DNA of 64,000 nt from contig JAHDRN010000019.1 in the NCBI GenBank assembly GCA_018433245.1, positions 3,622-67,621 on the forward strand, read 5' to 3'. The translations under genes and the position numbers were made by a program. Shown one piece after another: positions 9,289 to 55,329 of this stretch. Below the pieces are notes generated by a model. That model was given only the letters and a program-made list of their open reading frames with translations. It was not told the origin of the DNA and searched no databases. Every line of letters starts with the position of its first letter. The first letter of the stretch is position 1. Origin of the DNA: Candidatus Proruminimicrobium quisquiliarum (lineage in GTDB: Bacteria > Elusimicrobiota > Endomicrobiia > Endomicrobiales > Endomicrobiaceae).

Positions 9289-11397
9289 ATGAAATTCAAA
9301 ACGCTGTTCATCCTTACGGTTATATTTTCGCTGGCCGCGCTGTCAGCCGTCATATTCATATCAAAACTGATTGACGAATTGCCGCCCATATCAAACCTTG
9401 AAAGTTTTAAACCGAGCGTAGTTACAAAAATTTACGATAAAGACGGAAATATAATTTCAGAGATGTTCATTGAACGCAGAGTATTGGTTCCTCTGAAAGA
9501 TACTCCGGCCGACTTGCAAAATGCTTTTATCGCAATTGAAGACAACGATTTTTATGAACACTGGGGCATATCTACAAAAGGCATTCTCAGAGCGTTTGTT
9601 ATCAATTTTTTAAAAGGAAAAGTATCTCAGGGCGGTTCTACAATAACCCAGCAGCTTGCAAAAACCATATTTTTGACATCCGAAAGGACAATAACAAGAA
9701 AAATTAAAGAAATGCTTTTAACCGTACAGTTGGAACACGAATATACGAAAGAAGAAATTCTGCAATTATATATAAACCAGATTTATTTCGGAGCAGGCGG
9801 ATACGGAGCCGAATCTGCCTGTAAAATATACTTCGGTAAATCCGTTAAAGACATAAACCTGGCCGAAGCGGCTTTAATCGCAGGCCTTCCTAAAGCGCCG
9901 AATTATTATTCTCCTTTAAAAAATCCGGAAATCGCAAAAAACAGAAGAGCCGTAGTTTTATCTCGTATGCGCGATTTGGGATTTATTACTAAAGAGCAGG
10001 AAGAAGAAGCAAACAATCAGCCTTTGCCGGATAAACGGCAATTGCCGGAACGCAGTTCCGGACATTATTTTATAGAATATCTGAGAATATTGCTTGAGCC
10101 GAAATACGGCACAAATGTTCTTCACAAAGAAGGCTTATCAATATATACCACTCTTGATTCCAAAATGCAGGCAGCAGCCGAAAAAGCGCTTTCGGAAAGC
10201 CTTGATAATTTTGATACTCAGCAGTCTGAATTTTTTAAAAAAGCTCAAATTGAACCTAAAAAAGTTCAGGGAGCCTTAATAGCAATAGATCCTAAAACCG
10301 GAGCAATCAGAGCAATGGTAGGCGGCCGCGATTTTAAAGAAACAAAATTCAACAGAGCCATACAGGCAAAAAGACAAGCCGGCTCTTCCTTTAAGCCGTT
10401 CCTTTATACGGCGGCTATAGACTCAAAAATCATGACTCCGGCCACAATTCTTGAAGATAAACCTATTGTCTACGCGTTTGACGGTAAAATGTGGAATATC
10501 GCTTCAAGAAATGTAAATTATGTTGAAGTGCTTGCCGAAAAAATGACTTCCGATGAATTGATTGATCCGATGAAAATATGGACTCCCGCCAATTACGGAG
10601 GAAAATTCAGAGGAGAAATGACGTTAAGAAGAGCTATAGCAAAATCGGTAAACATATGCGCAATTGAAACTATTGAAAAAGTAACTCCGTCAAAAGTTAT
10701 AGACTACGCCAGAATGATGGGCATAAAAAGCCCTCTTGTAAATTCTTTATCTCTTGCTTTGGGCTCAAGCGACGTAACGCTGCAGGAAATGGTCTCGGCG
10801 ATAGGAACTCTTGCATCGGGCGGCATTCAGACGGAACCTTATTTTATAACAAAAATAATTGATAAAGACGGGAAAATACTTGAAAATAACATCCCGAACG
10901 AAAAAGAAGTTTTAACTCCGCAAACGTCATACATTATGACAAATCTGTTGAAAGGCGTAGTTGAAAGAGGAAGCGGAATCAGGGCTAGAGAACTTGGAAG
11001 ACCGTGCGCAGGAAAAACCGGAACTTCAAACGACAGTATTGACGCGTGGTTTATAGGATATACTCCTCAATTAGCGGCAGGCGTTTGGGTAGGTTATGAC
11101 GACAGGACTTCTCTGGGAAAAAATGCGACAGGCGGAAACACGGCATGTCCGATATGGACGAGTTTTATGAAAAACGCTCTTGCCGGTTATCCGATTAGAG
11201 ATTTTGCGCAGCCTAAAGGAATTGAATGGGCATTGATAGATCCGGCCACAGGACTTCTTGCATTAAGCAAAACTCCCGGCGCTTATCTTGAATCTTTCCT
11301 TGAAGGAACAGCGCCGAAAAGTTATTCAATTATGAAAGATTCGTCAAAAAAAGCCGCCGAAGAAGAAGACGACTTAATAAACGAAGACGGATTCTAA
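9289..11397 (+). CDS. mrcA: class A penicillin-binding protein 1A (transglycosylase/transpeptidase)
   Basis: GT51 motifs EDNDFYEHWG and GGSTITQQ. Transpeptidase motifs SSFKP and KTGTS. N-terminal TM anchor. Confidence 0.92.
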   Translation: MKFKTLFILTVIFSLAALSAVIFISKLIDELPPISNLESFKPSVVTKIYDKDGNIISEMFIERRVLVPLKDTPADLQNAFIAIEDNDFYEHWGISTKGILRAFVINFLKGKVSQGGSTITQQLAKTIFLTSERTITRKIKEMLLTVQLEHEYTKEEILQLYINQIYFGAGGYGAESACKIYFGKSVKDINLAEAALIAGLPKAPNYYSPLKNPEIAKNRRAVVLSRMRDLGFITKEQEEEANNQPLPDKRQLPERSSGHYFIEYLRILLEPKYGTNVLHKEGLSIYTTLDSKMQAAAEKALSESLDNFDTQQSEFFKKAQIEPKKVQGALIAIDPKTGAIRAMVGGRDFKETKFNRAIQAKRQAGSSFKPFLYTAAIDSKIMTPATILEDKPIVYAFDGKMWNIASRNVNYVEVLAEKMTSDELIDPMKIWTPANYGGKFRGEMTLRRAIAKSVNICAIETIEKVTPSKVIDYARMMGIKSPLVNSLSLALGSSDVTLQEMVSAIGTLASGGIQTEPYFITKIIDKDGKILENNIPNEKEVLTPQTSYIMTNLLKGVVERGSGIRARELGRPCAGKTGTSNDSIDAWFIGYTPQLAAGVWVGYDDRTSLGKNATGGNTACPIWTSFMKNALAGYPIRDFAQPKGIEWALIDPATGLLALSKTPGAYLESFLEGTAPKSYSIMKDSSKKAAEEEDDLINEDGF

Positions 11398-11400
11398 CAA

Positions 11401-11715
11401 CAACAAAAGCTCGGAAGTTTAGAAGCTGGGAAGTTTGGCAAAAACAAATACAATCAAAAAATCAATTCACAGAATCATTAATGTTTTGTCGGTAGTGCCA
11501 CGTTAAGCACTTTTATGAATGAAGTATTTTTTACCGTAAAAACTTCATATTTCTTAAATTTGAGGATTTTTTTGAGTTGTTGCTGTTATAGACTTCACAG
11601 TTGTTAGCGAATTGAAGAATTTTCAAATCGCAGTGTACGTAAGTAAAGCGGAGCGAACGGTACATCAGATTTGAAAATTCAAAAATGCAGCAACAAATGT
11701 GAAGGTGATATAAAA
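11401..11715. repeat. composite intergenic repeat element (longest copy of a dispersed family)
   Basis: Sub-blocks recur elsewhere: 11413-11443 resembles 20181-20203; 11497-11524 resembles 57091-57118; 11563-11586 resembles 57199-57222; 11629-11699 resembles 24051-24128. Also holds a perfect 13 bp inverted repeat, GAATTTTCAAATC (11617-11629) with GATTTGAAAATTC (11668-11680). Confidence 0.6.
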
Positions 11716-13452
11716 TTAGGTTCTTTTGAAAAATTTTTCCAGTTCTTCTCTCGTAATCTTATACATCGTAGGTCTTCCGTGCGGGCAGGTGTAAGGCATC
11801 TTACATTTAAATATATCTCTGACCAATTGCAAAGCTTGTTTATCAAGCATAATATCTCCTGCTTTTATGCTGCTTTTACAGGCGATTTTTATTATAGTTT
11901 CCTGCATTTCAGGAACCGCCGCGTTTTTTTCTTCTTTTAAAAATTCAATCACGCCGTTTATTATTTCAATCAAATTAACGTTTCCGCCCAATAATGCCGG
12001 ATAGGACGTCAGCCTGAAAGTATTGGAACCGAATTCTTCCAAAGCAAATCCCAATTTGTTAAATACCGCCAGAGAACTTTTTAAAACTACGCTTTGCCAT
12101 GCCTGCAGTTCAAAAACATCAGCAATCAAAAGCTGCTGCACCGATAATTTATTATTTTGAATTTCATCCGTAAACATTTCGTATTTTACTCTTTCCTGAG
12201 CCGCGTGCTGGTCTATTATATAACACACGTTTTGTTTTTCGGCGATTATGTACATATTGAACATCTGCCCTGCAAACTTATATTCATCAGACTGCAAAAG
12301 CTCTTCCTGTACGCCGGAATGAAAATTGCTTGAAGAATATAAATTTTTATAATCTGAAACGGATACATCTCTTTTATAATCATAACTTCTGTTGTATTGA
12401 TATCCGGCGTTTTCCGTAAGTTGTTTTCCGGGTTCCGCAGATTTAACTTCAATTATGCCGCCCGGACCGTCATTTTCAACGGCCCCTTTAATAAACGTAT
12501 AAAACAATTCATACATTTCATTTTCTCCGGAAAATTTAATTTCTCTTTTCGCCGGATGTACGTTTATGTCAATATCGGACGGGTCTGATTTTAAAAACAT
12601 AATTATTCCGGGATGTCTTCCTATCGGAGTTGACTGTTTATAAGCCTGATATATTGAATGAATAAGCCATTTCGGATAATTAACGCATCTTGAATTTACA
12701 AAAAGATACTGGGCGTTTTTATGAGACAGCGAATTGTCTCTTGTCGTAATAAACGCTTCAATTCCTATTTTAGGATGGTTAAAACTGATATATTTCATTT
12801 TTTTTGACAGATCTTTTCCCAAAATATCTTCTATGCGTTTTATTTTAGAATCGGTTTTGCGGTATTGGGCGAATATTTTTCCGTCCGTTATGACCGTAAA
12901 ATCAACGTCGTTTCTGACAAGAGCGATTTCATCTATGCAATTTATGATTTTTGCTTTTTCGGTTGTGTCGCTTTTTAAAAATTTTTGTCTTGCCGGAGTA
13001 TTAAAAAATAAATTTTTAACTTCAACAGCCGTTCCGCCAGAACCGGCCCAAGGCTGCAAATCGGACTGTTTAGAACCTTCCATAGACAAATGCCAGCCCG
13101 AATCCGAATTTTTCTTCTGCGTTTTTATATCAAATATTGATATCGCCGCTATGGAAGGAAGAGCTTCCCCCCTGAATCCTAAAGTCAGCGTTTTTGATAA
13201 ATCTTCAAAAACCGAAATTTTACTGGTGGCATGCCTCTGCACGGAAAGAAGCAAATCATCTTTATCCATGCCGCATCCGTTGTCGCTTACTCTTATTAAT
13301 TTTTTTCCTGATTTTTCTATTTCAACCGATATGTTTGAGGCGCCGGCGTCCAAAGCGTTTTCAACCAGTTCTTTTACGACGTTCAAAGGTCTTTCTACGA
13401 CCTCTCCGGCTGAAATTTTATTAATTGTTTTATCGTCTAAAACTTTTATCAT
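11716..13452 (-). CDS. mutL: DNA mismatch repair protein MutL
   Basis: GHKL ATPase motifs INKISAGEVVERP, ELVENALDAG and DNGCGM, plus a C-terminal dimerisation region. Start placed at ATG 13450-13452 (MIKVLDDKT), which overlaps the pilZ stop as ATGA. Confidence 0.93.
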   Translation of the reverse strand: MIKVLDDKTINKISAGEVVERPLNVVKELVENALDAGASNISVEIEKSGKKLIRVSDNGCGMDKDDLLLSVQRHATSKISVFEDLSKTLTLGFRGEALPSIAAISIFDIKTQKKNSDSGWHLSMEGSKQSDLQPWAGSGGTAVEVKNLFFNTPARQKFLKSDTTEKAKIINCIDEIALVRNDVDFTVITDGKIFAQYRKTDSKIKRIEDILGKDLSKKMKYISFNHPKIGIEAFITTRDNSLSHKNAQYLFVNSRCVNYPKWLIHSIYQAYKQSTPIGRHPGIIMFLKSDPSDIDINVHPAKREIKFSGENEMYELFYTFIKGAVENDGPGGIIEVKSAEPGKQLTENAGYQYNRSYDYKRDVSVSDYKNLYSSSNFHSGVQEELLQSDEYKFAGQMFNMYIIAEKQNVCYIIDQHAAQERVKYEMFTDEIQNNKLSVQQLLIADVFELQAWQSVVLKSSLAVFNKLGFALEEFGSNTFRLTSYPALLGGNVNLIEIINGVIEFLKEEKNAAVPEMQETIIKIACKSSIKAGDIMLDKQALQLVRDIFKCKMPYTCPHGRPTMYKITREELEKFFKRT

Positions 13453-13865
13453 ATTTTTTGTTTTTTGTCGCACAGAACGTAATAGCTGCATTCTTTTTTA
13501 CAGATATCGGTCGCTCCCAGGGCTATTTTTGTTTCGCAGTCGTTAAAATCTATCGCCATTCTGTTTATTTTTTTTGAATCAAGGGTGTCTATTTCTAAAA
13601 ATTCAAGACCTACTTCCCACATTGAATTTTTTAGTTTTGATCTTACAACCTTGCCGAGAATCTGTTTTGTTTCCATTTTGGGGATGTTAATCATAAGCGA
13701 AACTTCAGCGCTTATCGGTATGTCCGCATACATCAATAAAAGCATTCCGCCCGCCGATAAATTAATGATTATGCCGGGGAAAGTCTCTTTTTCCGTACCT
13801 ATTGAAACAGCGTGGCCGAAATCTTTTATTACAGGAAATCTCGGATGTCTTCTTTTATTTAACAT
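13449..13865 (-). CDS. PilZ domain protein with a Cys-rich C-terminal tail
   Basis: RRHPR (RxxxR) and NLSAGG (D/NxSxxG) c-di-GMP-binding motifs at canonical spacing. Tail is C-x14-C-x3-C-x5-C. Confidence 0.85.
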   Translation of the reverse strand: MLNKRRHPRFPVIKDFGHAVSIGTEKETFPGIIINLSAGGMLLLMYADIPISAEVSLMINIPKMETKQILGKVVRSKLKNSMWEVGLEFLEIDTLDSKKINRMAIDFNDCETKIALGATDICKKECSYYVLCDKKQKI

Positions 13866-13881
13866 ACTCTTTCTCCCAAAA

Positions 13882-16467
13882 TTATTTTTTATATTTTTCT
13901 TTCCAGTCCGATAATAATTTTAACGCTTCAACGGGTTTGAGATTATCAACATCCAGCTTTCTTAATTCTATCAAAATTTCAGGTTCTATTGAAGTAAAAA
14001 GATTAGGCTGTATATCCTGTTCAAGTTTTGAAAATTTTTTATTGATATTTTTTTCAAGTCCGTCAAGAATCTGATAAGCCCTTTGTATGACTTTATGCGG
14101 AACCCCCGCAAGACGGGCGACGTGTATTCCGTAAGATTTATCGGCGGATCCTTCAACGATTTTATGCAGAAAAATCACATTGCCGTCCCATTCCTTAACC
14201 GACACGCTGGCATTAATTATTCCGCTGCCTTCGGAAGCAAGAGACGTCAGTTCAAAATAATGAGTCGCAAACAGAACTTTTGCGCCTTTGTTGTATCTGC
14301 TGCCGGTATCGGAAAAAAACTCCAATATCGCCCACGCTATGGACATTCCGTCATAAGTGGACGTTCCTCTTCCCACTTCGTCAAGTATAATTAAGCTTTT
14401 ATCCGTATATCTGTTTAAAATATTGGCCGTTTCCGTCATTTCAACCATAAACGTTGATTCGCCTGCGGCAAGATTATCTCCGGCGCCTATTCTTGTAAAT
14501 ATTTTATCAACTATTCCTATTACCGCTTCGGAACACGGAACAAAAGAACCTATCTGCGCCATAATTACAATCAATGCCGTCTGTCTGAGATAAGTTGATT
14601 TACCGGACATATTGGGGCCGGTCAGTATCATTATTCTTTTATCGCTGTCGTTTAAATCAATGTCGTTTGCCACAAAATCGCCGAATTTTAAAATTTGTTC
14701 TATAACCGGATGTCTTGCATTTTTTAAAACAAGTTCTTTGCCGTACGTCATTTTAGGACAAACATAATTATTTTTAACGGCATTGAAAGCAAAAGACATA
14801 TAAATATCAAGTTCGGCGATCATTGACGAAATATTAAGTATTACAGCCGAATATTCCGCAAGTTCCTGTCTTAAACATACGTAAAGTTCGGTTTCAAGTT
14901 TTATCGTTTTATCCTGGGCTGAAATAATTTTTTCTTCCAGTATTTTTAATTCCTGCGTTATGTATCTTTCGGAATTCGTCAAAGTCTGCTTTCTTATGTA
15001 ATGAGCCGGCACCGACGATATGTTTGATTTTGTAACGTCAATATAATAACCGAATACGGACGTATATCCTATTTTCAAATTATTTATTCCGGTTGCCTGT
15101 CTTTCTTTTGTTTCAATTTCGGATATATATTTCTTAGCGTCTTTGCCGAGCAGTCTTAATTCGTCAAGTTCGGGCGAAACTCCCGTTTTTATAACGTTGC
15201 CGTCTTTAAGCATAACAGGGGCTTCCTGCTCTATATGAGATTCTATTTTTTCTATAACTTCTTTTACGGGTTCAACGACCGGATTTTCGCAATAGCCTAT
15301 TTCTTTTAATTTTTCAAAAATCGCGGTTGCGCCGATAAGAGAATCTTTTAACGCCAGAAGTTCTTTCGGATTTGCGGAACCGCTTATTATTCTTGCGGCT
15401 ATTCTGTCCAAATCGGCTATTGATTTTAAAATTTCGGACAATTCGTTACGCGCCGTTTCATTTTCAATGAATATTTTTATTTTATTCTGTCTGTCTTCTA
15501 TCTTTTTTATTTCAAGAAGCGGCTTTATTATCCAGTTTTTTACAAGTCTTGCCCCCATAGGAGTTATCGTAGCGTCAAGCACCGATACAAGAGAACCGTC
15601 CTGTTTGAGAGAAGTTGACGATCTTAAAATTTCAAGATTTTTAATCGCGACGCCGTCCAAAAGCATATAATCGCCTGTTTCCAAAAACCTGATATTGTTT
15701 AAAATCGGCAGAGTCTGCGGCTGGTTGTCCTGCACGTACATAAATATCGCGCCGACAGCCGATATAACGCCGGGCTTATCGGATATGTTAAAATGATTAA
15801 GAGAAGATATCTTTAATATTTTCTTTATTAAATTGCCGCAATATACGGCGTCCGAGCATATATCGTTTACGGTTGAGGACGTAATATTGGATTTTGAAAG
15901 AATCTTTTTTAAATTTTCGTCTTTTGCCAGCGACTGGGCTATAATAATTTCTCCGGGTTTGTATTTTATAATTTCATTTTCCAAATTCTGAATATCCGTC
16001 TCGTAAGCGAAAAAATCGCCCGTTGAAATATCTGCCGCCGCTACCGCGGCTACGGAAGAATCTCCGCCGGCAAAAAATACCGACATAAGATAATTGTTCA
16101 TTTTTGAATCAAGAAGATTATCTTCCAAAAGAGTTCCGGGAGTAATGACTTTAACAACTCCTCTTTTCACGATGCCTTTTGTCGCGCCCGGTTCTTCCAA
16201 TTGTTCGCAAATTGCTATTTTCAAACCGGCTTTTATCAATTTTCTTATATAATTTCCAGCGGAATGATACGGCACTCCGCACATCGGAACGGTTTGTCTT
16301 TTTGTCAGAACAACCTCTAAAATCGGAGACGCTTTTACGGCGTCTTCGCCGAACATTTCATAAAAATCGCCGAGTCTGAAAAACAGAATAATATCGGGAT
16401 ATTTGGCTTTTATAGCCGTATACTGCTGCATCAGCGGCGTTAATTGTCCGTCATCTTTATTTGTCAT
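13882..16467 (-). CDS. mutS: DNA mismatch repair protein MutS
   Basis: N-terminus TPLMQQY..KAKYPD..FFRLGDFYEMF, Walker A GPNMSGKST, 861 aa. Confidence 0.95.
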   Translation of the reverse strand: MTNKDDGQLTPLMQQYTAIKAKYPDIILFFRLGDFYEMFGEDAVKASPILEVVLTKRQTVPMCGVPYHSAGNYIRKLIKAGLKIAICEQLEEPGATKGIVKRGVVKVITPGTLLEDNLLDSKMNNYLMSVFFAGGDSSVAAVAAADISTGDFFAYETDIQNLENEIIKYKPGEIIIAQSLAKDENLKKILSKSNITSSTVNDICSDAVYCGNLIKKILKISSLNHFNISDKPGVISAVGAIFMYVQDNQPQTLPILNNIRFLETGDYMLLDGVAIKNLEILRSSTSLKQDGSLVSVLDATITPMGARLVKNWIIKPLLEIKKIEDRQNKIKIFIENETARNELSEILKSIADLDRIAARIISGSANPKELLALKDSLIGATAIFEKLKEIGYCENPVVEPVKEVIEKIESHIEQEAPVMLKDGNVIKTGVSPELDELRLLGKDAKKYISEIETKERQATGINNLKIGYTSVFGYYIDVTKSNISSVPAHYIRKQTLTNSERYITQELKILEEKIISAQDKTIKLETELYVCLRQELAEYSAVILNISSMIAELDIYMSFAFNAVKNNYVCPKMTYGKELVLKNARHPVIEQILKFGDFVANDIDLNDSDKRIMILTGPNMSGKSTYLRQTALIVIMAQIGSFVPCSEAVIGIVDKIFTRIGAGDNLAAGESTFMVEMTETANILNRYTDKSLIILDEVGRGTSTYDGMSIAWAILEFFSDTGSRYNKGAKVLFATHYFELTSLASEGSGIINASVSVKEWDGNVIFLHKIVEGSADKSYGIHVARLAGVPHKVIQRAYQILDGLEKNINKKFSKLEQDIQPNLFTSIEPEILIELRKLDVDNLKPVEALKLLSDWKEKYKK

Positions 16468-45278: not shown

Positions 45279-45908
45279 ATGGCTAGAAAAGGCTCCGACG
45301 GCGATAAAAGAATAATAAAAGCAGCCATAGATCTGGCTCATAAAAAAGGCCTGTCGGGATTTTCGGTAAGAGAACTTTGCTCAAAAGCAAAAGTAAATTC
45401 CGGAATGTTTAACTATTATTTCAAAAAGAAGGAATATCTTAACGAATGCGTTTTAAAAACAATTTACGCGGATATGATAAAACAGATTGAATTAAACGTT
45501 TCCCCTTCAAAAAATCCGAAAGAAAACATAACGGAAATTTTATACGCTTTAAGCTCTTTTATAAAAAACAACAGGACTATAATTTCGGCATTTGCCGGAG
45601 ACGTTTTAAGTTTAAACATAACGGATAAAAAAATATTCGGCAATTTTACCGCGCATCTTAAAGCTTTGGCTGAAGAATTATCAAAAGCAAAAAAACAAAA
45701 AATGCTTGTGACAAATTCCGTGACAAATGCAATTCTTATTCTTGTCGCGCCTTTTGTAATACCGCAGATGATACTGGGCACTCTTGAAAGAATGAATATA
45801 AACAAACCGATAGAACTATATGCCTTTAATTCCGGAGAATTTGATTCAACAACTGACGAAAGAATAAAAATCGCGGTAAACGCTGTTTTTAAAGAGAGGA
45901 TAAAATGA
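45279..45908 (+). CDS. TetR family transcriptional regulator
   Basis: N-terminal HTH (SGFSVRELCSKAKVNSGMFNYYF); first gene of the efflux operon. Confidence 0.8.
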   Translation: MARKGSDGDKRIIKAAIDLAHKKGLSGFSVRELCSKAKVNSGMFNYYFKKKEYLNECVLKTIYADMIKQIELNVSPSKNPKENITEILYALSSFIKNNRTIISAFAGDVLSLNITDKKIFGNFTAHLKALAEELSKAKKQKMLVTNSVTNAILILVAPFVIPQMILGTLERMNINKPIELYAFNSGEFDSTTDERIKIAVNAVFKERIK

Positions 45909-47239
45909 AAAAACTTTTTTTATTATTGCCGTGTCTGTTTTGTTATTGGCACGTTTATGCCGCGGATATTATAAAACTGACGCTTGAAACAGTTGAAAAA
46001 CAGGCTCTTGAATATTCGCCTAAAATCAAACAGGTTCAAAGCGCGGCGCAGGCTCAGGGCTATATCTCCGAAAGCTTTGGCGCATATCTTTATCCGGCGC
46101 TTACTCTTGACGCAAAAGGCGGATGGGTTTCGCAGATACCCGAACTTTCAATGGGTATGACAAAATTAAAATTCGGCGACAACTGGTCGTATTCGGCAGG
46201 CCCTACTCTTCAATATACCGTTTTTGACAATAACCGCAGAAAAGACAAAATAAAAAGCGAAACGGCGGTTTATAATTCAAAAATACGCGATTTTGAAGCC
46301 GTAAAAAAACAGGTTTTGCTTGACGCAAGGCGTTCTTATTTTAAAATACAGCGCGACCTTGAAAAAATATATTTTCTTTTTGAATATATGAAACTTACGC
46401 AAAAACAGCTCAAAGATATAAACTCGGCTTTTAAAACAGGCGTGAAAAATAAACGCGACGTTATAATGGCCGAAAAACAGTTTATTAAAGCAAAAATTTC
46501 AATAAGCGCCGCAAGAGCCGTTTTATCTCAGGATCTTTCGGAACTTTTTAAAATTACCGGAACGAATTTTTCAATAAATAACGATTATCCTTCCGATTAC
46601 AGAATAGAAACTGCAGAACTTGACGGAACGGCAAGCGCTTTGATTCAGTGCGACTCGCCTGACGATACTCTCGTAAAATTTACGCCCGTTGAAAATTTAA
46701 ACTTTGACTCCGAGCAGGCAAAACTTGTTTCTTATGACGAACTTGTAAAATCATACGAATATTTAAGCGCTTATTATAAATCGGAATTGTATCCTAAAAT
46801 CAATCTTGCGGCAGGCACTTATTTTGAATATACCAACGGTCCGATAACCGAAAGCGTATTTCAAACAAGAGCAAACGCCGCAATAAGCATGCCTCTGTTT
46901 GAAAAATCAAAAAACAAAAAATTGTCTCAGGCGCAAAAATCGGCGGCAGAGTCGGTCTCGGCGCAAAAACAGGATATGTCCGAAACGTTAAAAAGCCTTT
47001 TTGAGTTTTCAAAAAGAAGGCTTTATTCTTTAAACATAGAAAATAATCTTACCGAAAAAATGATAGAAGACTCAAAAACGGCTGTAAAACTTACTTACGA
47101 CGCATATAACGCGGGGTCCGTAACGTTTTTGGAAGTGCAGAACGCAAACATTGATTTGCTTTCGGCGCAGACGGAACTTTCAAATTTAAAAATAGAAAAA
47201 CTCAATTGTCTTGCCGTAATGGACAATTTAGGAAAATGA
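45905..47239 (+). CDS. TolC-family outer membrane efflux protein
   Basis: Signal peptide and two OEP repeats; operon context. Confidence 0.8.
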   Translation: MKKLFLLLPCLFCYWHVYAADIIKLTLETVEKQALEYSPKIKQVQSAAQAQGYISESFGAYLYPALTLDAKGGWVSQIPELSMGMTKLKFGDNWSYSAGPTLQYTVFDNNRRKDKIKSETAVYNSKIRDFEAVKKQVLLDARRSYFKIQRDLEKIYFLFEYMKLTQKQLKDINSAFKTGVKNKRDVIMAEKQFIKAKISISAARAVLSQDLSELFKITGTNFSINNDYPSDYRIETAELDGTASALIQCDSPDDTLVKFTPVENLNFDSEQAKLVSYDELVKSYEYLSAYYKSELYPKINLAAGTYFEYTNGPITESVFQTRANAAISMPLFEKSKNKKLSQAQKSAAESVSAQKQDMSETLKSLFEFSKRRLYSLNIENNLTEKMIEDSKTAVKLTYDAYNAGSVTFLEVQNANIDLLSAQTELSNLKIEKLNCLAVMDNLGK

Positions 47240-47246
47240 GGTTAAT

Positions 47247-47978
47247 ATGAAAAAACAAAAAATTATGCTGGCGGTTATTTTTATCGTAACGCTTGTTATG
47301 CTTGCTCTTATTTTTATAAGACGCGAAAATTTTGCTTACAGCGGAGTGATTGAAGCCGTTGAAGTTGACGTCTCGTCAAGAATGCCCGATATCATTTCAA
47401 AAATAAACGTTGACGAGGGAAGCGTTGTAAAAAAAGACCAGATTTTAGCCGTTCTTGAAAACAAAGAAACTAATCTTGCTTACGAGATAAGTTTAAAAGA
47501 ATTTAAACGAGCCGAGCAGCTTTTAAAAACATCGGCAGGATCTGAGGAAAATTACGATTTGAAAAAAAACAGATACCAGCAGGCTTTGATAAAAAAAGAG
47601 TGGGGCGAGATAAAAAGCCCGATAGACGGCAAAGTATTGTACAAATATTATGAAGCAGGCGAATTTGTTCCTGCCGGAAGAAAAATACTTACTATTGCCG
47701 ACTTAAAAAAAGTAAACGCATGGATATATGTTGAGCATGATAAACTTGCAGAGCTTTCAATAGGACAGGAAGTTATCGGTTATCTTCCCGAATCCGAACA
47801 GACGTTTAAAGGAACTATTACGGTTATAAACGATGAGGCGGAGTTTACTCCCAAAAACGTGCAGACAAAACAGGAAAGAACAAGACTTGTTTACGGAGTA
47901 AAAGTTTCATTTGAAAACGACGATAAATTTACTCTTAAACCGGGAATGACCGTTGAAGCCGATTTCGGCAAAAAATAA
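47247..47978 (+). CDS. HlyD-family membrane fusion protein (short)
   Basis: TM anchor, lipoyl-like hairpin (GSVVKKDQILAVLE ... SPIDGKV) and C-terminal beta-barrel motif LKPGMTVEA. Confidence 0.8.
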   Translation: MKKQKIMLAVIFIVTLVMLALIFIRRENFAYSGVIEAVEVDVSSRMPDIISKINVDEGSVVKKDQILAVLENKETNLAYEISLKEFKRAEQLLKTSAGSEENYDLKKNRYQQALIKKEWGEIKSPIDGKVLYKYYEAGEFVPAGRKILTIADLKKVNAWIYVEHDKLAELSIGQEVIGYLPESEQTFKGTITVINDEAEFTPKNVQTKQERTRLVYGVKVSFENDDKFTLKPGMTVEADFGKK

Positions 47979-47995
47979 ATTTAAACGGAGCAAAA

Positions 47996-48721
47996 ATGCC
48001 CGCTTTGGAAGTTTCATTTAATAATGTCAGTAAAAAAATGGCTGACGCCCAAGCCTTAAAAAACGTATCCGCCGAGCTAAAAAGCGGACAGATTAACGGC
48101 ATAATAGGGCCTAACGGAGCCGGCAAAACTACGTTTATAAGGCTTACTGCAACGCTTCTTACTCCTGATTCGGGAAATATAGTTTATTTTGAAAATAAAA
48201 TAAAAAAAAGCGCTTACCAGATAAAAAACGATACTGGCTATTTTCCTCAGGAACCAAGTTTATATGCCGATTTAAGCTGCATTGAAAACATGGAATTTTT
48301 CAGAGATTTATACGGTATAACAAATAAAGAATTTAAAGCAAGAAGCGAAGAACTTTTTTCGGCAACCGCAATGGCTCCGTTTAAAGACAGGCCTGCCGGA
48401 AAACTGTCAGGCGGAATGTATAAAAAACTCGGGCTGATGTGCGTTCTTTTAAACCGCCCTAAACTGCTTTTATTGGACGAACCGACTGTCGGCGTTGATC
48501 CTTTAAGCAGACAGGAATTATGGACGCTTATAAACAAATTTGCCGGGCAAGATATGACCGTAGTAATTACAACGTCATATATGGAAGAAGCGTTAAGATG
48601 TTCAAACGTCATAGCGCTTGATGAAGGAAACCTTATAATACAGGATAATCCCCAGAATATAATGAAAAAATTTAATTTAAAAAATTTTGCAGATATATTT
48701 TTATTAAAAAACAATGAATAA
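47996..48721 (+). CDS. ABC transporter ATP-binding protein (YbhF-like, first half)
   Basis: Walker A GPNGAGKTT, LSGGMYKK, LLLLDEPT. Confidence 0.85.
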   Translation: MPALEVSFNNVSKKMADAQALKNVSAELKSGQINGIIGPNGAGKTTFIRLTATLLTPDSGNIVYFENKIKKSAYQIKNDTGYFPQEPSLYADLSCIENMEFFRDLYGITNKEFKARSEELFSATAMAPFKDRPAGKLSGGMYKKLGLMCVLLNRPKLLLLDEPTVGVDPLSRQELWTLINKFAGQDMTVVITTSYMEEALRCSNVIALDEGNLIIQDNPQNIMKKFNLKNFADIFLLKNNE

Positions 48722-49637
48722 TATTATAGACGTAAAAAATTTAAGCGTTTTATTCGGCGGTTTTAAAGCTGTCAACGATATCTCTTTTGACGTCAAAAAA
48801 GGAGAAATATTCGGATTTCTGGGTGCTAACGGAGCAGGCAAAACTACAACAATAAGAGTTTTATGCGGAATATTAAAACCGTCTTCGGGAAAAGTTGTTC
48901 TTGAAGGAAAAGATGTCACAAAATCAATACAGATTCTTAAAAATAAAATAGGGTATATGTCGCAGAAATCTACCTTATACAAAGACCTCACGATAGCCGA
49001 AAATATTACATTTTCAGGCAGGCTTTACAATATGGATGACGGTAAAATAGAAAAAAGACAAAAAGAGCTGTTTGATTTTATAGGTTTAAAAGAGAATGTT
49101 TCAAAAATAGCGGGTTCTCTTCCTTTGGGAATAAAACAGATGGTCGCTTTGTGCGCGACTGTTATTCATGATCCCGAAATAATATTTCTTGACGAGCCGA
49201 CAGCAGGCGTTGACCCGAAAACAAGAGAACGGTTTTGGGAACTTATAAAAAATATGGCGTCTTCAGGCAAAACTGTTTTTGTCACTACCCACTATATGGA
49301 CGAAGCCTCTTACTGCAACAGAATAGTTCTTATGGATAAAGGAAGCATTATAGATTTTGACTGCCCCGATAACCTTAAAACCAAATATTTCAAACAAAAA
49401 CCGGTTGAAATAAAATTTAAAGATAATCTAGTCCAAAACAAAATAATGAAAGAATTTGAAAATCAAAATGCGGGATACGGCTATATTTTTGCAGACACTT
49501 TAAGATTTTTTGTAAACAATAAAACAAATTTTGAAAATATTATTTCGGAATATAAAAAAGATTTGACGGTTACACAAACGGAAGCTACTCTTGAAGACGT
49601 TTTTTTAAAAGCGCTTCAAAGGGAGAATAAAAAGTGA
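48714..49637 (+). CDS. ABC transporter ATP-binding protein (YbhF-like, second half)
   Basis: Walker A GANGAGKTT, Walker B IIFLDEPT. Confidence 0.85.
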   Translation: MNNIIDVKNLSVLFGGFKAVNDISFDVKKGEIFGFLGANGAGKTTTIRVLCGILKPSSGKVVLEGKDVTKSIQILKNKIGYMSQKSTLYKDLTIAENITFSGRLYNMDDGKIEKRQKELFDFIGLKENVSKIAGSLPLGIKQMVALCATVIHDPEIIFLDEPTAGVDPKTRERFWELIKNMASSGKTVFVTTHYMDEASYCNRIVLMDKGSIIDFDCPDNLKTKYFKQKPVEIKFKDNLVQNKIMKEFENQNAGYGYIFADTLRFFVNNKTNFENIISEYKKDLTVTQTEATLEDVFLKALQRENKK

Positions 49638-50764
49638 ACCTCTTTTTCAGACGTATTTTTTCAATATCAATGAAAGAATATAAACATATTTTAAGAGACC
49701 CTTTTACTTTTGCCGCAGCCGTCGGCATTCCGATTCTTTTTGTAATATTTTTCGGGTTTATAATAGATCTTGATTATAAAGGCGTAAACGTCAACGTAAG
49801 AGACAACGACCAGACGGAATCGTCAAGGCGTTTTTTACAGCTTATGGGTTCAAGCTCGTATTTTAATCTTATTCCCCTGCACCAACAGTCTGAAGCGGAT
49901 AAAAAAATAAATCAAAATGATATGTCGGCCGTGTTGATAATACCGAAAGGATTCGGGCAGACCGTAAAAAAAGGAGAAGAACCGGCCCAAATGCAGCTTT
50001 TGATAGACGGAACAGATAACGCAAAAGCAGGTATCGTTACAAGCTATATAACGCTTGCTGCCGAAAAAGCGTCTGAGGTTTTATTTGATAACAACGGTAT
50101 TCAAAAATCTGCTTTAAATATCAAAACACGCTTTCTTTTTAATCCGGAACTTAACAGCAGATGGTTTATAGTGCCGGGACTGGGTACCGTTATAATAGGA
50201 CTTATAGCAATAGTTCTTACGGCTCTTACCGTTGCAAAGGAATGGGAAAACGGCTCTATGGAACTTCTTCTTGCAACGCCCGTATCGGCAACTGAAATAA
50301 TAATCGGCAAACTGATACCTTATTTTATACTTGCGCTTGCCGATATATTTATGATTTTTATATTTTCAATATTTGTTTTTGCGATACCTTTTAAAGGAAG
50401 TTTTCTGTTTTATGTTTTATCGTGCGTAATTTATATTACAGGCGCTCTGGCGCTCGGGCTTTTGATTTCTGTTATTACAAGAAAGCAGGAACAGGCTACC
50501 CAGATAGCTTTTGCCGTAGGAATTCTTCCGTCTTTTATTTTATCGGGATTTATTTTCCCGATTGAAAATATGCCTCTTTTTTTCAGGATTTTAACGGCCG
50601 TTTTTCCGCAGAGATGGTTTATGCAGATAAGCAGAAGCGTTTTTTTAAGCCCGTCGGGATTTTTTGAACTTATAATGCCGTTTTTATTTATAACATTTTT
50701 TGCTGTTTTAATGATATTTATATCAATTAAAAAATTTAAAAAAGATTTGGAAGTGACGCAATGA
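49634..50764 (+). CDS. ABC-2 type permease (YbhS/YbhR-like)
   Basis: N-terminal TM, large periplasmic loop and a C-terminal 5-TM ABC-2 domain (EWENGSMELLL). Confidence 0.85.
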   Translation: MNLFFRRIFSISMKEYKHILRDPFTFAAAVGIPILFVIFFGFIIDLDYKGVNVNVRDNDQTESSRRFLQLMGSSSYFNLIPLHQQSEADKKINQNDMSAVLIIPKGFGQTVKKGEEPAQMQLLIDGTDNAKAGIVTSYITLAAEKASEVLFDNNGIQKSALNIKTRFLFNPELNSRWFIVPGLGTVIIGLIAIVLTALTVAKEWENGSMELLLATPVSATEIIIGKLIPYFILALADIFMIFIFSIFVFAIPFKGSFLFYVLSCVIYITGALALGLLISVITRKQEQATQIAFAVGILPSFILSGFIFPIENMPLFFRILTAVFPQRWFMQISRSVFLSPSGFFELIMPFLFITFFAVLMIFISIKKFKKDLEVTQ

Positions 50765-51873
50765 GATTTACTATTTTAAAAGGTTATTTCATTAAGGAAT
50801 TTATACAAATTTTACGCGATAAAAAAATGATCGCTTTGATATTTTTTATTCCTATTATGCAGATGACTATGTTCGGGCTTGCCCTTACAAGCGAAGTAAA
50901 AAACATAGAGCTTGTAATTATCGCAAAGCCCGGCAAAATAGCAAGAGAACTTACCGCAAGAAGTATGGCGGGAGGCTGGTTTAAAAAAATAACAAATATT
51001 GACGTTTACAAAGAGTCCGACCCAGTTTCCCTTATACAAAAACATAAAGCGGAAGCCGTTTTAATTGCTCCGAAAGAAGGTTTTGAATACGCTCTTGAAA
51101 GAGGCGGTAAAGATATTCAGCTTCTTGTTGACGCAACAAATTCGCAGAGAGCCCAGCAGGTTTCAGTTTATGTAAAACAGCTTCTTTTGCAGACGGCAAG
51201 AGACAAATACGGAAAAGAAAACTTTAAAAATATGACAGACATAAAAACAAGAGTTTTGTTTAACCATTATATGAACACGGCGGATTTTATGATACCCGCT
51301 TTAATGGTAATGGCAAGTTTTATCGTTTTGATGCTTGTAAGCTCAATGAGTTTTACAAAAGAAATAGAAACAGGTACTCTTGAAAAACTTGTAGTTTCCC
51401 CCTCTTATACATACGAGATACTGTCAGGCAAAATACTGCCTTATTTTGTAATCGGTCTTCTTCTTATGACTTTTATGCTTGTTACGGGAATAGGATGGTT
51501 CGGGCTTTCTTTCAGAGGAACGATATGGCAGCTTTTGATAACAGCGATACTTTTCATAGGTTCTGCTTTATCATGCGCCGTTTTAATTTCAACTTTCGCA
51601 AAAACACAGCAGCAGGCGATGATGGGAAGCATTTTGTTAATTCTTCCGGCAATACTTCTATCGGGAATCCTTTTTCCCGTTGAAAACATTCCGCAGTCGG
51701 TAAGATGGATATGTTATCTTAACCCGATGATATATTCGGTTACAAATTTCAGAAGCATAATCCTCAAAGGCGGAGATTATCTGCTATGTCTGCAAAACTG
51801 CGCCGCATTACTGTTAATCTGCATAATATTATCGGCAGCAGCCTACAAAAACTTTAAATCTAAATTTAATTAA
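50761..51873 (+). CDS. ABC-2 type permease (YbhS/YbhR-like)
   Basis: Same architecture (EIETGTLEKLV); paralogue of the preceding gene. Confidence 0.85.
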   Translation: MRFTILKGYFIKEFIQILRDKKMIALIFFIPIMQMTMFGLALTSEVKNIELVIIAKPGKIARELTARSMAGGWFKKITNIDVYKESDPVSLIQKHKAEAVLIAPKEGFEYALERGGKDIQLLVDATNSQRAQQVSVYVKQLLLQTARDKYGKENFKNMTDIKTRVLFNHYMNTADFMIPALMVMASFIVLMLVSSMSFTKEIETGTLEKLVVSPSYTYEILSGKILPYFVIGLLLMTFMLVTGIGWFGLSFRGTIWQLLITAILFIGSALSCAVLISTFAKTQQQAMMGSILLILPAILLSGILFPVENIPQSVRWICYLNPMIYSVTNFRSIILKGGDYLLCLQNCAALLLICIILSAAAYKNFKSKFN

Positions 51874-51923
51874 AATAATTTTTAATATTGTATAATCTTA
51901 AAAAATGCGCATAAGGAGCAGGA

Positions 51924-52979
51924 ATGAAAAAATTTATTTCCGTCTTATGTTTTTTGTTTATAAACATTTTTATTTCAAATTATTCTTTAACGCAAGCGGC
52001 AGAAACAGACGCCGACAGTTTGAAGCAAACAACCGTCACTTCTTATTTGCAGAAAAAAATCACAAAGGGCAAAAATCTGATTTTCTGTTCAACAATGCAG
52101 CTTGCATGGAATGCTTTGTGCGATGATATTATAAAAGCTCCTTTGGAACTGTCGGGAACACCTGAAATTCAAACAATGCTCAATGAAAGATTAACTGGCA
52201 AAGAAGATATAGCCCCAGACGCTTACATCGCAATGGCAGGATTTAACAGAGACGGCATTGTTAAAAAAATAGACAACGCGTTATTAAATAAATTTGATAA
52301 AAAAAACGGATGCGGAATAACGCTAATGAGCCCTGAAGATATACTTGCGTATGCCTATCTGTTTAAAAAACTTGAATTTAAAAATAAATTTGAAGATCTA
52401 AACGATAATCCTATTTTTTTCAAAAATGAAACAGAAGTAGAAACTTTCGGAATAAAACAATATTCATACGAAATTGCTAAGCAGGTTAAAATACTTTATT
52501 ATAACAATGACAACGATTTTATATTAAAACTTGAGTCCAAATCTCAAAATGACGAGATAATACTTGCAAAAATAGAGCCTAAAGAAACGCTTTTATCAAC
52601 CGTTGATTATGTTTTTGAACAAATTAAAAATAAAAAAACTATTGCCATAGAAAAAGGAGATATCCTAAAAATACCAAAATTTGACTTTGATATTTTCAAA
52701 AAATATTCGGAACTAATAAACAGAGATTTTCTTAATAAAAATTTTGAAGGATACTTTATATCAGATGCATTTCAGGGAATTAAATTCAAACTTGATGAAA
52801 AAGGAGTAATCCTTGAATCATACGCGGCTATAAGAGGAGAAAAAAGCATGCCATATTTGCCGGGAACAAAACGGTTAATTTTTGACAAGCCTTTTTTATT
52901 TTGCCTTAAAGAAAAAACAGGCAAATATCCGTATTTCGTAATGTGGATTGATAACGCCGAATTAATGTTAAAAAAATAA
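51924..52979 (+). CDS. secreted serpin-like protein, copy A
   Basis: Signal peptide. Collinear serpin motifs NLIFCSTMQLAWNAL (s6B/hB), ILAYAYLFKKLEFKNKFE (s3A), ILKIPKFDFD (s2C), KLDEKGVILESYAAI (s5A/hinge) and FDKPFLFCLKEK (s4B/s5B). Confidence 0.7.
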   Translation: MKKFISVLCFLFINIFISNYSLTQAAETDADSLKQTTVTSYLQKKITKGKNLIFCSTMQLAWNALCDDIIKAPLELSGTPEIQTMLNERLTGKEDIAPDAYIAMAGFNRDGIVKKIDNALLNKFDKKNGCGITLMSPEDILAYAYLFKKLEFKNKFEDLNDNPIFFKNETEVETFGIKQYSYEIAKQVKILYYNNDNDFILKLESKSQNDEIILAKIEPKETLLSTVDYVFEQIKNKKTIAIEKGDILKIPKFDFDIFKKYSELINRDFLNKNFEGYFISDAFQGIKFKLDEKGVILESYAAIRGEKSMPYLPGTKRLIFDKPFLFCLKEKTGKYPYFVMWIDNAELMLKK

Positions 52980-52997
52980 TCTCAGCAAAAATATAAA

Positions 52998-53035
52998 AAT
53001 AATAGATACTGTTAAATTTTACAGTATCTATTATT
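52998..53035 (+). terminator. terminator hairpin after serpin A
   Basis: Perfect 15 bp inverted repeat AATAATAGATACTGT / ACAGTATCTATTATT with an 8 nt loop. Confidence 0.6.
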
Positions 53036-53127
53036 TATTATGCCTGCAAAACTGCGCCGCATTATTGCTAATCTGCATAATATTATCGGCAGCAGCCTAC
53101 AAAAACTTCAAATCCAAATTTAATTAA
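53032..53127 (+). pseudogene. relic copy of the last 31 codons plus stop of the ABC-2 permease gene
   Basis: Aligns without gaps to 51778-51873. By my count there are 8 nucleotide differences, all synonymous in the permease frame (YLLCLQNCAALLLICIILSAAAYKNFKSKFN*). No upstream coding context. Confidence 0.8.
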
Positions 53128-53176
53128 AATAATTTTAATATTGTATAATCTTAAAAAATGCGCATAAGGAGCAGAA

Positions 53177-54223
53177 ATGAAAAAATTTATTTCCGTTTTA
53201 TGTTTTTTATTTTTAAGTATTTTTATTTCAAATTATTCTTTCACTGAAGCGGCAGAATCCATTGACGCTGACAGTTTACAGCAAACAACCGTCACTCCTT
53301 ATTTGCAGAAAAAAATCACAGCAGGCAAAAATCTTGTTTATGGTGCAACATTTCAGCTTGCATGGAATGCCTTATGCGATGATATTATAAAAGTTCCTTT
53401 GCAATTATCAGGAACATCGGAAATACAAAATATGCTTAACGAGAGATTAGTCAATAAAGAAGATATTGCGGAAAATACTTGCATCGCCATGGCAGGTTTT
53501 GAAAGAAATAACATTGTTCAAAAAATAGATGAGGCTTTATTAAAAAAATTTAACAATACAAAAGGCTGCGGCATAAAATTACATAATCCCAGTGATATTC
53601 TGGCTTATGCCTATCTGTTTAAAAATCTTGAATTTGAAAATAAATTTGAAGATTTAAACTCAAATCCGATTTTTTTCAAAAATGAAACAGAAGTAGAAAC
53701 TTTCGGAATAAAACAATATTCATACGAAATTGCCAAGCAGGTTAAAATACTTTATTATAACAATGACAACGATTTTATATTAAAACTGGAATCCAAATCT
53801 CAAAATGATGAGATAATACTTGCAAAAATAGAGCCTAAAGAAATGCTTTTAACAACCGTTGATTATGTTTTTGAACAAATTAAAAATAAAAAAACTATTG
53901 CCTTAAAAAAAGGTGATATCTTAAAAATACCAAAGTTTGATTTTGATATTTTTAAAAAATACCGTGAACTAACAGGCAGAAGTTATGGCGTCTATGCTTT
54001 AGCAGGCGCCATTCAGGGAATTAAATTTAAACTTGATGAAAAAGGAGTAATCCTTGAATCATATGCAGCTATTGTGATGCAGGAAAAAAGCATATCAGTC
54101 CCGGTGGAGCCAAAACAGTTAATTTTTGACAAGCCTTTTTTATTTTGCCTTAAAGAAAAAAACGGCAAATATCCGTATTTTGTAATGTGGATTGATAACG
54201 CGGAATTAATGTTAAAAAAATAA
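53177..54223 (+). CDS. secreted serpin-like protein, copy B
   Basis: Paralogue of 51924-52979 with an identical promoter/RBS region. The central about 90 aa are nearly identical. The N-terminal half and the loop before FDKPFLF are divergent. Confidence 0.7.
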   Translation: MKKFISVLCFLFLSIFISNYSFTEAAESIDADSLQQTTVTPYLQKKITAGKNLVYGATFQLAWNALCDDIIKVPLQLSGTSEIQNMLNERLVNKEDIAENTCIAMAGFERNNIVQKIDEALLKKFNNTKGCGIKLHNPSDILAYAYLFKNLEFENKFEDLNSNPIFFKNETEVETFGIKQYSYEIAKQVKILYYNNDNDFILKLESKSQNDEIILAKIEPKEMLLTTVDYVFEQIKNKKTIALKKGDILKIPKFDFDIFKKYRELTGRSYGVYALAGAIQGIKFKLDEKGVILESYAAIVMQEKSISVPVEPKQLIFDKPFLFCLKEKNGKYPYFVMWIDNAELMLKK

Positions 54224-54246: not shown

Positions 54247-54666
54247 ATGAAAAAATCAGTTTTGTTTTTATTATCTGTATTTGGATTTGTTTTTGCAGGA
54301 TGCGCTACTGTTCCAACAACTTGGGAACAAACTGTTATCAATTATCAGGCGGCGGCTCCGAAAGTAGAATTAGGAATGTCAAAACAGGAAGTAGTTGATA
54401 TACTGAACCCGACTCAAACACTATTGGCAAATACTGAAATAAAACAACCTGACAGATATATAAAAGACGGCGTTAACGTTGAAATTCTATATTACAGAAG
54501 CGGCTGGATTTCTGACAACTTAAATACCGATGACGAGTACACACCCTATGTTTTCAATAACGGAAAACTTGTCGCAATCGGATGGATGACTATCGGAGGA
54601 CCGAAAAACACATCTTCCTCCGTACCAAAGGTAAACGTCCAAAACAAAACCACTGTTATTTATTAA
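54247..54666 (+). CDS. lipoprotein (BamE/SmpA-OmlA-like or DUF3192-like)
   Basis: Lipobox FAGC. GMSKQEVVDILNP is typical of SmpA/OmlA-fold lipoproteins; family assignment tentative. Confidence 0.6.
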   Translation: MKKSVLFLLSVFGFVFAGCATVPTTWEQTVINYQAAAPKVELGMSKQEVVDILNPTQTLLANTEIKQPDRYIKDGVNVEILYYRSGWISDNLNTDDEYTPYVFNNGKLVAIGWMTIGGPKNTSSSVPKVNVQNKTTVIY

Positions 54667-54715: not shown

Positions 54716-55225
54716 ATGATTATGAGTAATTCAAACATTCATCATTTAAAAGATAGTGAAGAAACTAGAAACAAAATTCATTATGCATATGTTTTGGTAA
54801 AAGATTACTTAACTTATAAAAAAGGTCTCGCTGAATTAAAAATAGGTGTTGGGGCATACATTTATGATTTGGACAAGCCTGCTTGTTTAAATATTAGATA
54901 TTACTCTAAGGCTTTAGAGGATGAATTTAAGAAAAAGTTATCTTTTAAGGAGTGTATGAGAGCAGAATGCAAAAAAAAAGTTTCTGATATAACTGAAGAA
55001 CATATGATATGCAGATGTGTACTAAGAGATGAATTTATAAAAATGATAACTGAAAAAGCTACTGAAAATGAATGTTTTGATTTTTTAGATAAACATCTTA
55101 TGATATGTACAATGAAAAAGGAAGAAGAAAAAAAATTACCGAAAAACAGACAAGGCTTAAAGAATTGGAAAAAATATTATGATGATGCTGGAATAAATCC
55201 ACTTCCAGCAATAAATAACAAATAA
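54716..55225 (+). CDS. hypothetical Cys-rich cytoplasmic protein, 169 aa
   Basis: ORF with a GAGAGG RBS and 8 Cys; no family recognised. AT-rich. Confidence 0.5.
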   Translation: MIMSNSNIHHLKDSEETRNKIHYAYVLVKDYLTYKKGLAELKIGVGAYIYDLDKPACLNIRYYSKALEDEFKKKLSFKECMRAECKKKVSDITEEHMICRCVLRDEFIKMITEKATENECFDFLDKHLMICTMKKEEEKKLPKNRQGLKNWKKYYDDAGINPLPAINNK

Positions 55226-55260: not shown

Positions 55261-55329
55261 CGCCTGTTAATCTGCATAATATTATCGGCGGTTGCCTACA
55301 AACACTTCAAATCCAAATTCAGTCAATAA
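55261..55329 (+). pseudogene. second, more diverged relic of the permease 3' end
   Basis: Encodes RLLICIILSAVAYKHFKSKFSQ* in the homologous frame. Its core TAATCTGCATAATATTATCGGC is identical to 51814-51835 and 53068-53089. Shares the TTC/TCC variants with the relic at 53032. Confidence 0.7.

Follow-up and report, generated by a model that had tools for sequence, protein, structure and literature searches.

Do two adjacent, closely related genes of Candidatus Proruminimicrobium quisquiliarum (Elusimicrobiota) encode a pair of secreted protease inhibitors of the serpin type, or does their serpin-like fold serve another end? The genes lie in a 64,000-nt stretch of contig JAHDRN010000019.1 (assembly GCA_018433245.1, positions 3,622 to 67,621 of the forward strand), here called the window, from a 1.94 Mb draft genome in 35 contigs. 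Open reading frame (ORF) A (51924-52979, plus strand) encodes 351 aa and ORF B (53177-54223, plus strand) 348 aa; both frames are intact and the products are 79% identical. The original prediction, made from the sequence alone, took them for tandem serpin-like inhibitors with different protease targets. The two signal-peptide ORFs that it described, with DEKGVILESYAAI, IPKFDFD and FDKPFLFCLKEK collinear in A and B, were recovered at the same coordinates. Both proteins start with MKKFISVLCFLF and carry a Sec-type signal peptide, for which we place the cleavage, by eye, between TQA or TEA and the following AE, leaving about 325 mature residues. ORF A is an A-type allele, 95% identical to its closest orthologue, P0001; ORF B is a divergent paralogue that, among our samples, was seen in one contig alone (as P0009).

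Serpins have a textbook metastable fold, in which stored strain is used to trap proteases. We propose, with a probability of roughly 0.55, that A and B are instead Sec-exported proteins of a reduced serpin fold whose hinge would be permanently inserted and which would act as binding modules, the pair having arisen by duplication or insertion followed by exchange of segments.

Against the Pfam Serpin profile (PF00079; gathering threshold 27 bits, full domain), A and B scored only 19.1 and 20.0 bits, and the match covered profile positions 287/300-364 of 370, corresponding to their last 70-80 residues. Likewise, a search of the PDB with A as a single sequence gave nothing significant (PAI-1, E ~0.9). 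A profile built from 50 homologues matched serpins alone in the PDB (PAI-1, E = 1.7e-4), and PF00079 was detected at E<=0.01 in 39 of the 50 aligned family members (best 2e-8). Alignment with hhalign to a profile of 10 canonical Elusimicrobiota serpins reached 88% probability (E = 3e-6) over 234 columns, spanning residues 96-340 of A. Both proteins contain LIFDKPFLFCL (52875-52907, plus strand, in A), which anchors the Pfam and PAI-1 alignments and which we take to fit the serpin C-terminal signature (s1C/s4B) as a PROSITE-type pattern; a regular expression for that signature found it in 98 of the 112 family members and in 8 of the 10 canonical Elusimicrobiota serpins, the sets used for all signature and hinge counts below. 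AlphaFold2 (AF2) produced confident models, with a mean predicted local distance difference test (pLDDT) of 86.2 and a predicted TM-score (pTM) of 0.83 for A, and 87.9 and 0.84 for B. Foldseek comparisons of both models with the PDB, a check of the kind that the original prediction had proposed, returned serpins only (probability 1.00, E ~1e-10 to 1e-11). Because hhalign, the PDB profile matches, PF00079 in relatives, Foldseek and the C-terminal signature agree, relatedness to serpins is well supported, on sequence profiles and models, at the level of homology and fold; the predicted serpin character thus stood in these respects, and failed as membership of PF00079.

Indeed, A and B are not ordinary members of that family, being 50-60 residues shorter and having about five helices. 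Canonical serpins, which score 290-411 bits on PF00079, occurred in 10 of 151 sampled Elusimicrobiota genomes, and none was present in the genome carrying A and B. With canonical prokaryotic serpins, among which thermopin and miropin are named in PMC8233489, A and B share, besides profile-profile homology and fold class, frequent export, an E-x-G turn after strand 5A, the F-D-K-P-F-L-type s1C/s4B signature, and a Gln at the shutter position occupied by His or Gln in serpins. They differ, apart from score and size, in the hinge, which reads EKG-V-I-L-E-S-Y-A in A/B and EEG-T-E-A-A-A-A-T in canonical serpins.

The inhibitory hinge consensus at P17-P9 is ExGTEAAAA (PMC8233489, citing Hopkins 1993 and Irving 2000), with Thr or Ser at P14 and small side chains from P12 to P9, and the canonical Elusimicrobiota serpins display it, for example as NEKGTEAAAATA. 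The homologous segment of A comprises residues 292-303, EKGVILESYAAI (52797-52832, plus strand). Across the 112 family members the turn is nearly fixed, with E at P17 in 105, K at P16 in 96 and G at P15 in all; P14 is A in 72, V in 36, and T and S in one each. The following positions read V/L/I (P13), L (P12, 108 of 112), K/E/R (P11), S (P10, 110 of 112), E/Y/R/K (P9) and A (P8, 97 of 112), with I/M/L/F at P6. Not one of the 112 members satisfied a permissive regular expression for the inhibitory hinge, as compared with 7 of 10 canonical controls, so the doubt about a bulky hinge voiced in the original prediction was well placed. The hinges of A and B are identical in amino acids though they carry four synonymous differences. 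Judged from these sequences, the hinge columns are an amphipathic β-strand (A/V-φ-L-±-S-±-A-x-φ, where φ is hydrophobic) under strong purifying selection.

Both models place this segment inside the sheet. Strands assigned with DSSP ran over residues 294-303 in A and 290-299 in B, and each forms a hairpin with the s5A-equivalent strand (282-291 in A, where residue i pairs with 585-i); pLDDT in the hairpin block was 93-95 for A and 91-96 for B. Among the 50 best Foldseek matches of either model, almost all were titled as cleaved, latent or loop-inserted serpins. They include cleaved vaspin, corticosteroid-binding globulin (CBG) and PAI-1, latent conserpin and 1IZ2, as well as the latent molecules of antithrombin dimers (their 'L' chains). 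From models and alignment together we infer that the hinge would form a permanent strand 4A, and that A and B would lack a spring-loaded mechanism.

According to this proposal, the segment homologous to P15-P6 would be an integral strand 4A of sheet A, pairing with strand 5A, and A and B would be born in the 'relaxed', loop-inserted topology. Latent and loop-cleaved serpins (latent PAI-1, latent conserpin, cleaved vaspin, CBG) are the best structural matches and also have the hinge at the strand-4A position, but they reach the relaxed state from a metastable native one, by cleavage or slow conversion; in A and B the relaxed state is the predicted native fold of the uncleaved chain, with bulky conserved residues facing both inward and outward. 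Without stored strain for suicide inhibition, the two proteins would most likely be stable extracytoplasmic binding modules and not classical serpin traps. Use of the scaffold without protease trapping has precedents in the non-inhibitory serpin-fold proteins (PMC8233489), and ovalbumin, Hsp47, PEDF, maspin and the hormone-binding globulins likewise have hinges that depart from the small-residue consensus. Those proteins are full-length PF00079 members, mostly eukaryotic, and most keep a five-stranded native sheet A, whereas the A/B family is bacterial and reduced, scores below the Pfam threshold and often occurs in fusions with surface or signalling domains.

The 10-15 residues after the strand would be a surface loop, flexible and under weak constraint, which differs from one allele type to another. 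In A this variable loop comprises residues 304-317, RGEKSMPYLPGTKR (52833-52874, plus strand; pLDDT <50 at 305-315), at the distal reactive-centre-loop (RCL) position; in B it comprises residues 300-314, VMQEKSISVPVEPKQ (54074-54118, plus strand; pLDDT <50 at 302-313). The original prediction had called the two segments completely different; a variable loop does occupy the RCL position, but the two versions have an EKS core and a P-K end in common and are about 27% identical. Entropy in the close clade peaks in the block of residues 307-316 (1.46 bits, the next block reaching 1.06), and family-wide this block ties with two other loops. Loop length, measured as the G-to-F distance, lies between 19 and 30, most often at 26, and the loop is stable within an allele type, A and P0001 being one residue apart, as are P0010 and its G004 counterpart. 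The ratio pN/pS in the loop was 0.26-0.8. In four phylogenetically independent pairs, the counts of non-synonymous and synonymous differences (nd:sd) were 15:7 in the loop against 243:231 elsewhere, which is not significant (Fisher, p=0.13). At the sequence level, therefore, the loop is under relaxed constraint, and diversifying selection was not demonstrated.

A second patch also separates the two proteins, as predicted, although the change belongs to B only. Patch 2 of A (residues 263-283, ELINRDFLNKNFEGYFISDAF; 52710-52772, plus strand) corresponds to the serpin hI-to-s5A linker and the start of s5A, and hhalign pairs it with the serpin 'DFSGM...LYIS.V.HKAF' region (linker and first half of s5A). 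Its ELINRDFLNKNFEGYFISDAF-like form is kept in A and in all 12 close orthologues. In B (residues 264-279, ELTGRSYGVYALAGAI; 53966-54013, plus strand) it has lost five residues and acquired substitutions to small residues, while the aromatic and hydrophobic pattern (F>Y, Y=Y, I>L, A=A, F>I) is preserved around a clean 15-nt deletion; inspection by eye led us to reject a compensated frameshift or a foreign insert. Under the hairpin register of the model of A, residues 277-283 would face 302-308, so that, given an inserted strand, the B-specific patches would lie side by side; a native-type serpin would have them at opposite poles. The altered lower half of strand 5A in B could then form, with the start of the loop, one changed surface, and A and B possibly differ in their partner.

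We then compared A and B along their length. They are 93% identical in DNA across the duplicated permease 3' end, promoter and ribosome-binding site (51776-51882 versus 53030-53136), 79% over 52008-52307 and 95% over 52338-52637 (plus strand; versus 53594-53893 in B), a putative gene-conversion tract, with 96-99% in codons 166-225; two barely alignable patches follow the central tract, and identity rises again to 96% toward the 3' end. Synonymous divergence (dS) between A and B was 0.83 for residues 27-140 and 0.27 for residues 141-262, against 0.23 and 0.32 between A and its orthologue in genome G003, indicating that A is nearer to the orthologue in its N-terminal part and nearer to B in the centre. 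Site patterns among A, B and P0001 (DNA from L030) changed accordingly along the alignment. Sites at which A equals P0001 and not B outnumbered those at which A equals B and not P0001 by 71 to 2 in 52076-52375 and by 46 to 0 in 52676-52875; the counts were 7 and 12 in 52376-52575, and 3 and 15 in the permease remnant. Sites shared by B and P0001 and not A were concentrated in the signal-peptide region. The clustering of patterns gave a maximum chi-square of 54.6, a value as high being found in 0 of 500 permutations. In addition, A and B have in common derived residues that are absent from all A-type orthologues, such as ILYYNNDNDF (versus ILHYNNDDDF) and KNETEVETF. These results bear out the mosaic, as opposed to uniform, divergence, the near-identical promoter regions and the gene conversion in the scaffold that had been suggested by eye, and they support exchange between the A and B copies and among population alleles as the simplest account.

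In animals, clustered serpin genes are known as tandem paralogues with gene conversion and divergent specificity loops. The A/B locus resembles them in its adjacent copies, homogenised scaffold tracts and divergent loop at the RCL position, and differs in that positive selection on the loop is not demonstrable and that the duplication unit includes the 3' end of a neighbouring permease gene.

This unit, of about 1,254 nt, begins within the 3' end of the second ABC-2 permease ORF (50761-51873, plus strand; 51776 versus 53030) and takes in the expression signals. The genuine permease end (51776-51873, plus strand) is followed by TGTATAAT, an extended -10-like motif (51889-51896), and an AAGGAG ribosome-binding site (51913-51918) upstream of ORF A, on the plus strand; a consensus scan of this upstream region flagged no full sigma-70 promoter. 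The second copy of the permease end is a non-coding remnant (53030-53126, plus strand), with a duplicated TGTATAAT at 53142-53149 and AAGGAG at 53166-53171. A third and more degraded remnant, found by alignment at 55262-55329 (plus strand), follows a 169-aa ORF downstream of B, about 2 kb beyond the A-to-B junction. The spacer seen upstream of ORF A also precedes P0010 in L008.

Related loci show different arrangements behind the exporter. The order is permease, P0001, DUF3192 gene in L030; permease, DUF3192 gene, P0004 in L031; permease, P0010, a second serpin-like gene (P0121), DUF3192 gene in L008; and permease, a 3.8-kb opposite-strand block, serpin-like gene, DUF3192 gene in G003. A permease-end remnant with the TGTATAAT motif also lies between the serpin-like and DUF3192 genes in L030 (2886-3005) and in L006 of G003 (11038-11147), and this recurrence of remnants indicates that the site has repeatedly duplicated or accepted units of permease end, promoter and gene. 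The tandem pair would thus have come about by duplication or insertion of one such unit behind the ABC-2 exporter, the copies later swapping segments with each other and with other alleles. It is possible that the duplication is old, that the second slot was lost in sister genomes and that conversion came later; it is also possible that a foreign allele was inserted by recombination in the permease end. A distant contig (L012 / L013) has two family members 5 kb apart, one of which, P0058 (566 aa), has two N-terminal CarboxypepD_reg domains, showing that paralogy within a locus is not limited to the genus.

Several observations weigh against a permanently inserted hinge, and they partly coincide with those that would make A and B true inhibitory serpins with an unusual hinge, in which the loop would be a functional RCL and the two proteins would have different protease targets. 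The inserted hinge rests on AlphaFold models from one alignment, and AF2 may favour the thermodynamic ground state; moreover, the TM-scores of the models to serpins are about 0.5, with a root-mean-square deviation of 7-8 Å. The serpin fold, the E-K-G turn at P17-P15, the small residues Ser P10 and Ala P8 and the C-terminal signature are all conserved, and the loop is within the serpin range of length, the distance from G to s1C (mode 26) bracketing the canonical value, which is about 22 in α1-antitrypsin. Because these features are retained, a slow or atypical insertion mechanism is possible. The loop is also the most variable block in the close clade, between flanks that are 90-100% identical, and pairwise ratios of non-synonymous to synonymous divergence (dN/dS) reach about 0.9-1.35 in some comparisons. 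Finally, two relatives are fused to a chagasin-like domain, Inhibitor_I42, which scores 22-26 bits, below the cut-off of 27.2; the fusions hint at a protease-inhibitor theme. We nevertheless consider inhibition unlikely. The near-invariant Leu at P12, the hydrophobic P13 and the charged or bulky residues at P11 and P9 exclude every family member from the consensus, both models put the hinge in the sheet (pLDDT ~95), and loop length varies by 11 residues, when the distance-critical serpin mechanism tolerates length variation on the P side poorly. The non-synonymous excess was not significant in independent pairs, and no protease gene was present in the 11 neighbourhoods of family members that we examined. 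The different protease targets of the original prediction are thus unsupported.

B might also be a drifting, redundant or decaying duplicate whose patches reflect relaxed constraint and no new specificity, which we judge improbable. B occurs in this genome only, every orthologue otherwise conserves patch 2, a single copy suffices in sister genomes, and B deviates at 4 of 75 highly conserved, near-invariant columns (C55G, P80S, Y101C and a deletion at N271), as compared with 0-2 in its close relatives. Four deviations, however, are the family median; the frame, signal peptide, promoter-like motif and ribosome-binding site of B are intact, dN/dS outside the patches is 0.13-0.23, the AF2 model of B is as confident as that of A, and in L008, too, a tandem pair with different loops is retained. 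Far less probable still is an assembly artefact joining two strain alleles of one locus, a concern raised by a draft in many contigs and by a repeat unit of about 1.25 kb with long near-identical stretches. The junction between A and B consists of a unique stretch of 50 nt that holds a strong hairpin, followed by the permease-end remnant, without a join inside shared sequence, which argues against an artefact. So do the degraded third remnant further on, the similar remnants before the DUF3192 gene in L030 and G003, and the tandem pair on the independent 1.9-Mb contig L008.

The hairpin of this junction (52997-53036, strand not assigned) is AT-rich, with a minimum free energy of -22.4 kcal/mol (z -7.0), and was flagged, on the minus strand, as resembling a terminator. 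Either a shared terminator or a small repeat is possible; we rejected a multicopy element, as the whole genome holds a single relative, 80% identical (G000:C21:69391-69445).

The family of A and B extends beyond this genus. A first search with A retrieved 180 homologues, and the profile of 50 homologues retrieved about 1,937 clusters (50% identity) with an E cut-off of 1e-30, a number that rises to 3,061 when the cut-off is 1e-10. Searches of NCBIfam, PADLOC and PHROGs with A and B gave no match, and hence no link to a named family, a defence system or phages. Some members are automatically named 'Serpin domain-containing protein' in UniRef, so that the bare fold assignment is not new; a literature search on bacterial serpin-like or non-inhibitory proteins, Elusimicrobia and anti-sigma serpins found nothing on the family. 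What is new is a reduced, probably non-metastable serpin-like family without a characterised member.

In a crude tally of 211 sequences, 90 had signal-peptide-like starts, 33 a lipobox and 36 membrane-anchored extensions, so that most members would be exported, lipidated or held in the membrane. Fusion partners of the family domain include CarboxypepD_reg, dockerin, WG repeats, HEAT repeats, a β-propeller, and an extracytoplasmic function (ECF) sigma factor followed by a transmembrane segment. In P0155 (536 aa) and P0129 (472 aa), the serpin-like domain is the extracytoplasmic C-terminal part of an ECF sigma-transmembrane fusion and of a zinc-ribbon protein with multiple transmembrane segments. 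L014 has an ECF sigma gene and a zf-HC2/dockerin anti-sigma-like gene ahead of its family member. In some lineages the domain may thus act as a sensor, and for A and B themselves a role as protease decoy or sensor is conceivable. The two chagasin-type relatives, P0161 (799 aa) and P0185 (811 aa), are arranged as CarboxypepD_reg, dockerin, Inhibitor_I42 and serpin-like domain, possibly making each a multi-inhibitor surface protein. A bolder generalisation, which we hold to be doubtful, is that the roughly 2,000 clusters would constitute a natively loop-inserted, non-metastable branch of the serpin superfamily with a stable scaffold of the six-strand type, in which the flexible post-strand loop would be a recognition or protease-bait element, wired into signalling in some lineages through ECF sigma fusions or zinc-ribbon/transmembrane proteins.

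The genes around A and B offer limited guidance. Directly upstream of A is an operon of TetR, TolC-like, HlyD-like, two ABC ATPase and two ABC-2 permease genes (45279-51873), so the original prediction was right in placing A behind an ABC-2/TolC exporter; the adjacency is confined to the genus, at a hot spot of insertion and duplication. Downstream of B lies a gene for a DUF3192 lipoprotein (54247-54666, plus strand; PF11399, 35.6 bits against a cut-off of 26.9; lipobox FAGC, by eye). DUF3192 is a member of the BLIP/BamE-like superfamily, whose proposed role is in binding or inhibition (PMC2954215). It adjoins the serpin-like gene throughout the genus, in either order (G003, G004, L008, L030 and L031). 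In six distant contexts outside the genus, we found neither DUF3192, ABC-2 nor protease genes as conserved neighbours; PMT_2 and glycosyltransferase genes recurred in three of them and an ECF sigma gene was near the family member in three, associations too weak to be used.

The 169-aa ORF (54716-55225 of the window) had no match in Pfam, NCBIfam, PADLOC or PHROGs, and its slot is variable, being occupied by an isochorismatase-family gene in G003 and L008. In L008, the island between the exporter and the aas gene (11177-14928) holds a DpnII-type restriction-modification set and an HNH protein. The opposite-strand block of G003 (L006, 6623-9809), comprising ZnuB-like, ZnuA-like and porin-like genes and a small ORF, starts directly after the permease stop. 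The region behind the exporter is consistent with a variable cargo or defence island.

For the family to which A and B belong, we could find neither literature, nor a solved structure, nor a dedicated Pfam or NCBIfam model, although it is widespread among environmental phyla of anaerobes and many of its members are fusions with surface or signalling domains. The locus shows how cassettes build up at a cargo site behind an efflux operon while paralogues exchange segments. If our reading is true, a large bacterial family that keeps the fold with the hinge built in would be a natural 'ground-state' serpin, giving a handle on how serpin metastability arose and on whether it is ancestral or derived. 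It would also supply stable serpin scaffolds for engineering and a new bacterial extracytoplasmic sensor or binding domain.

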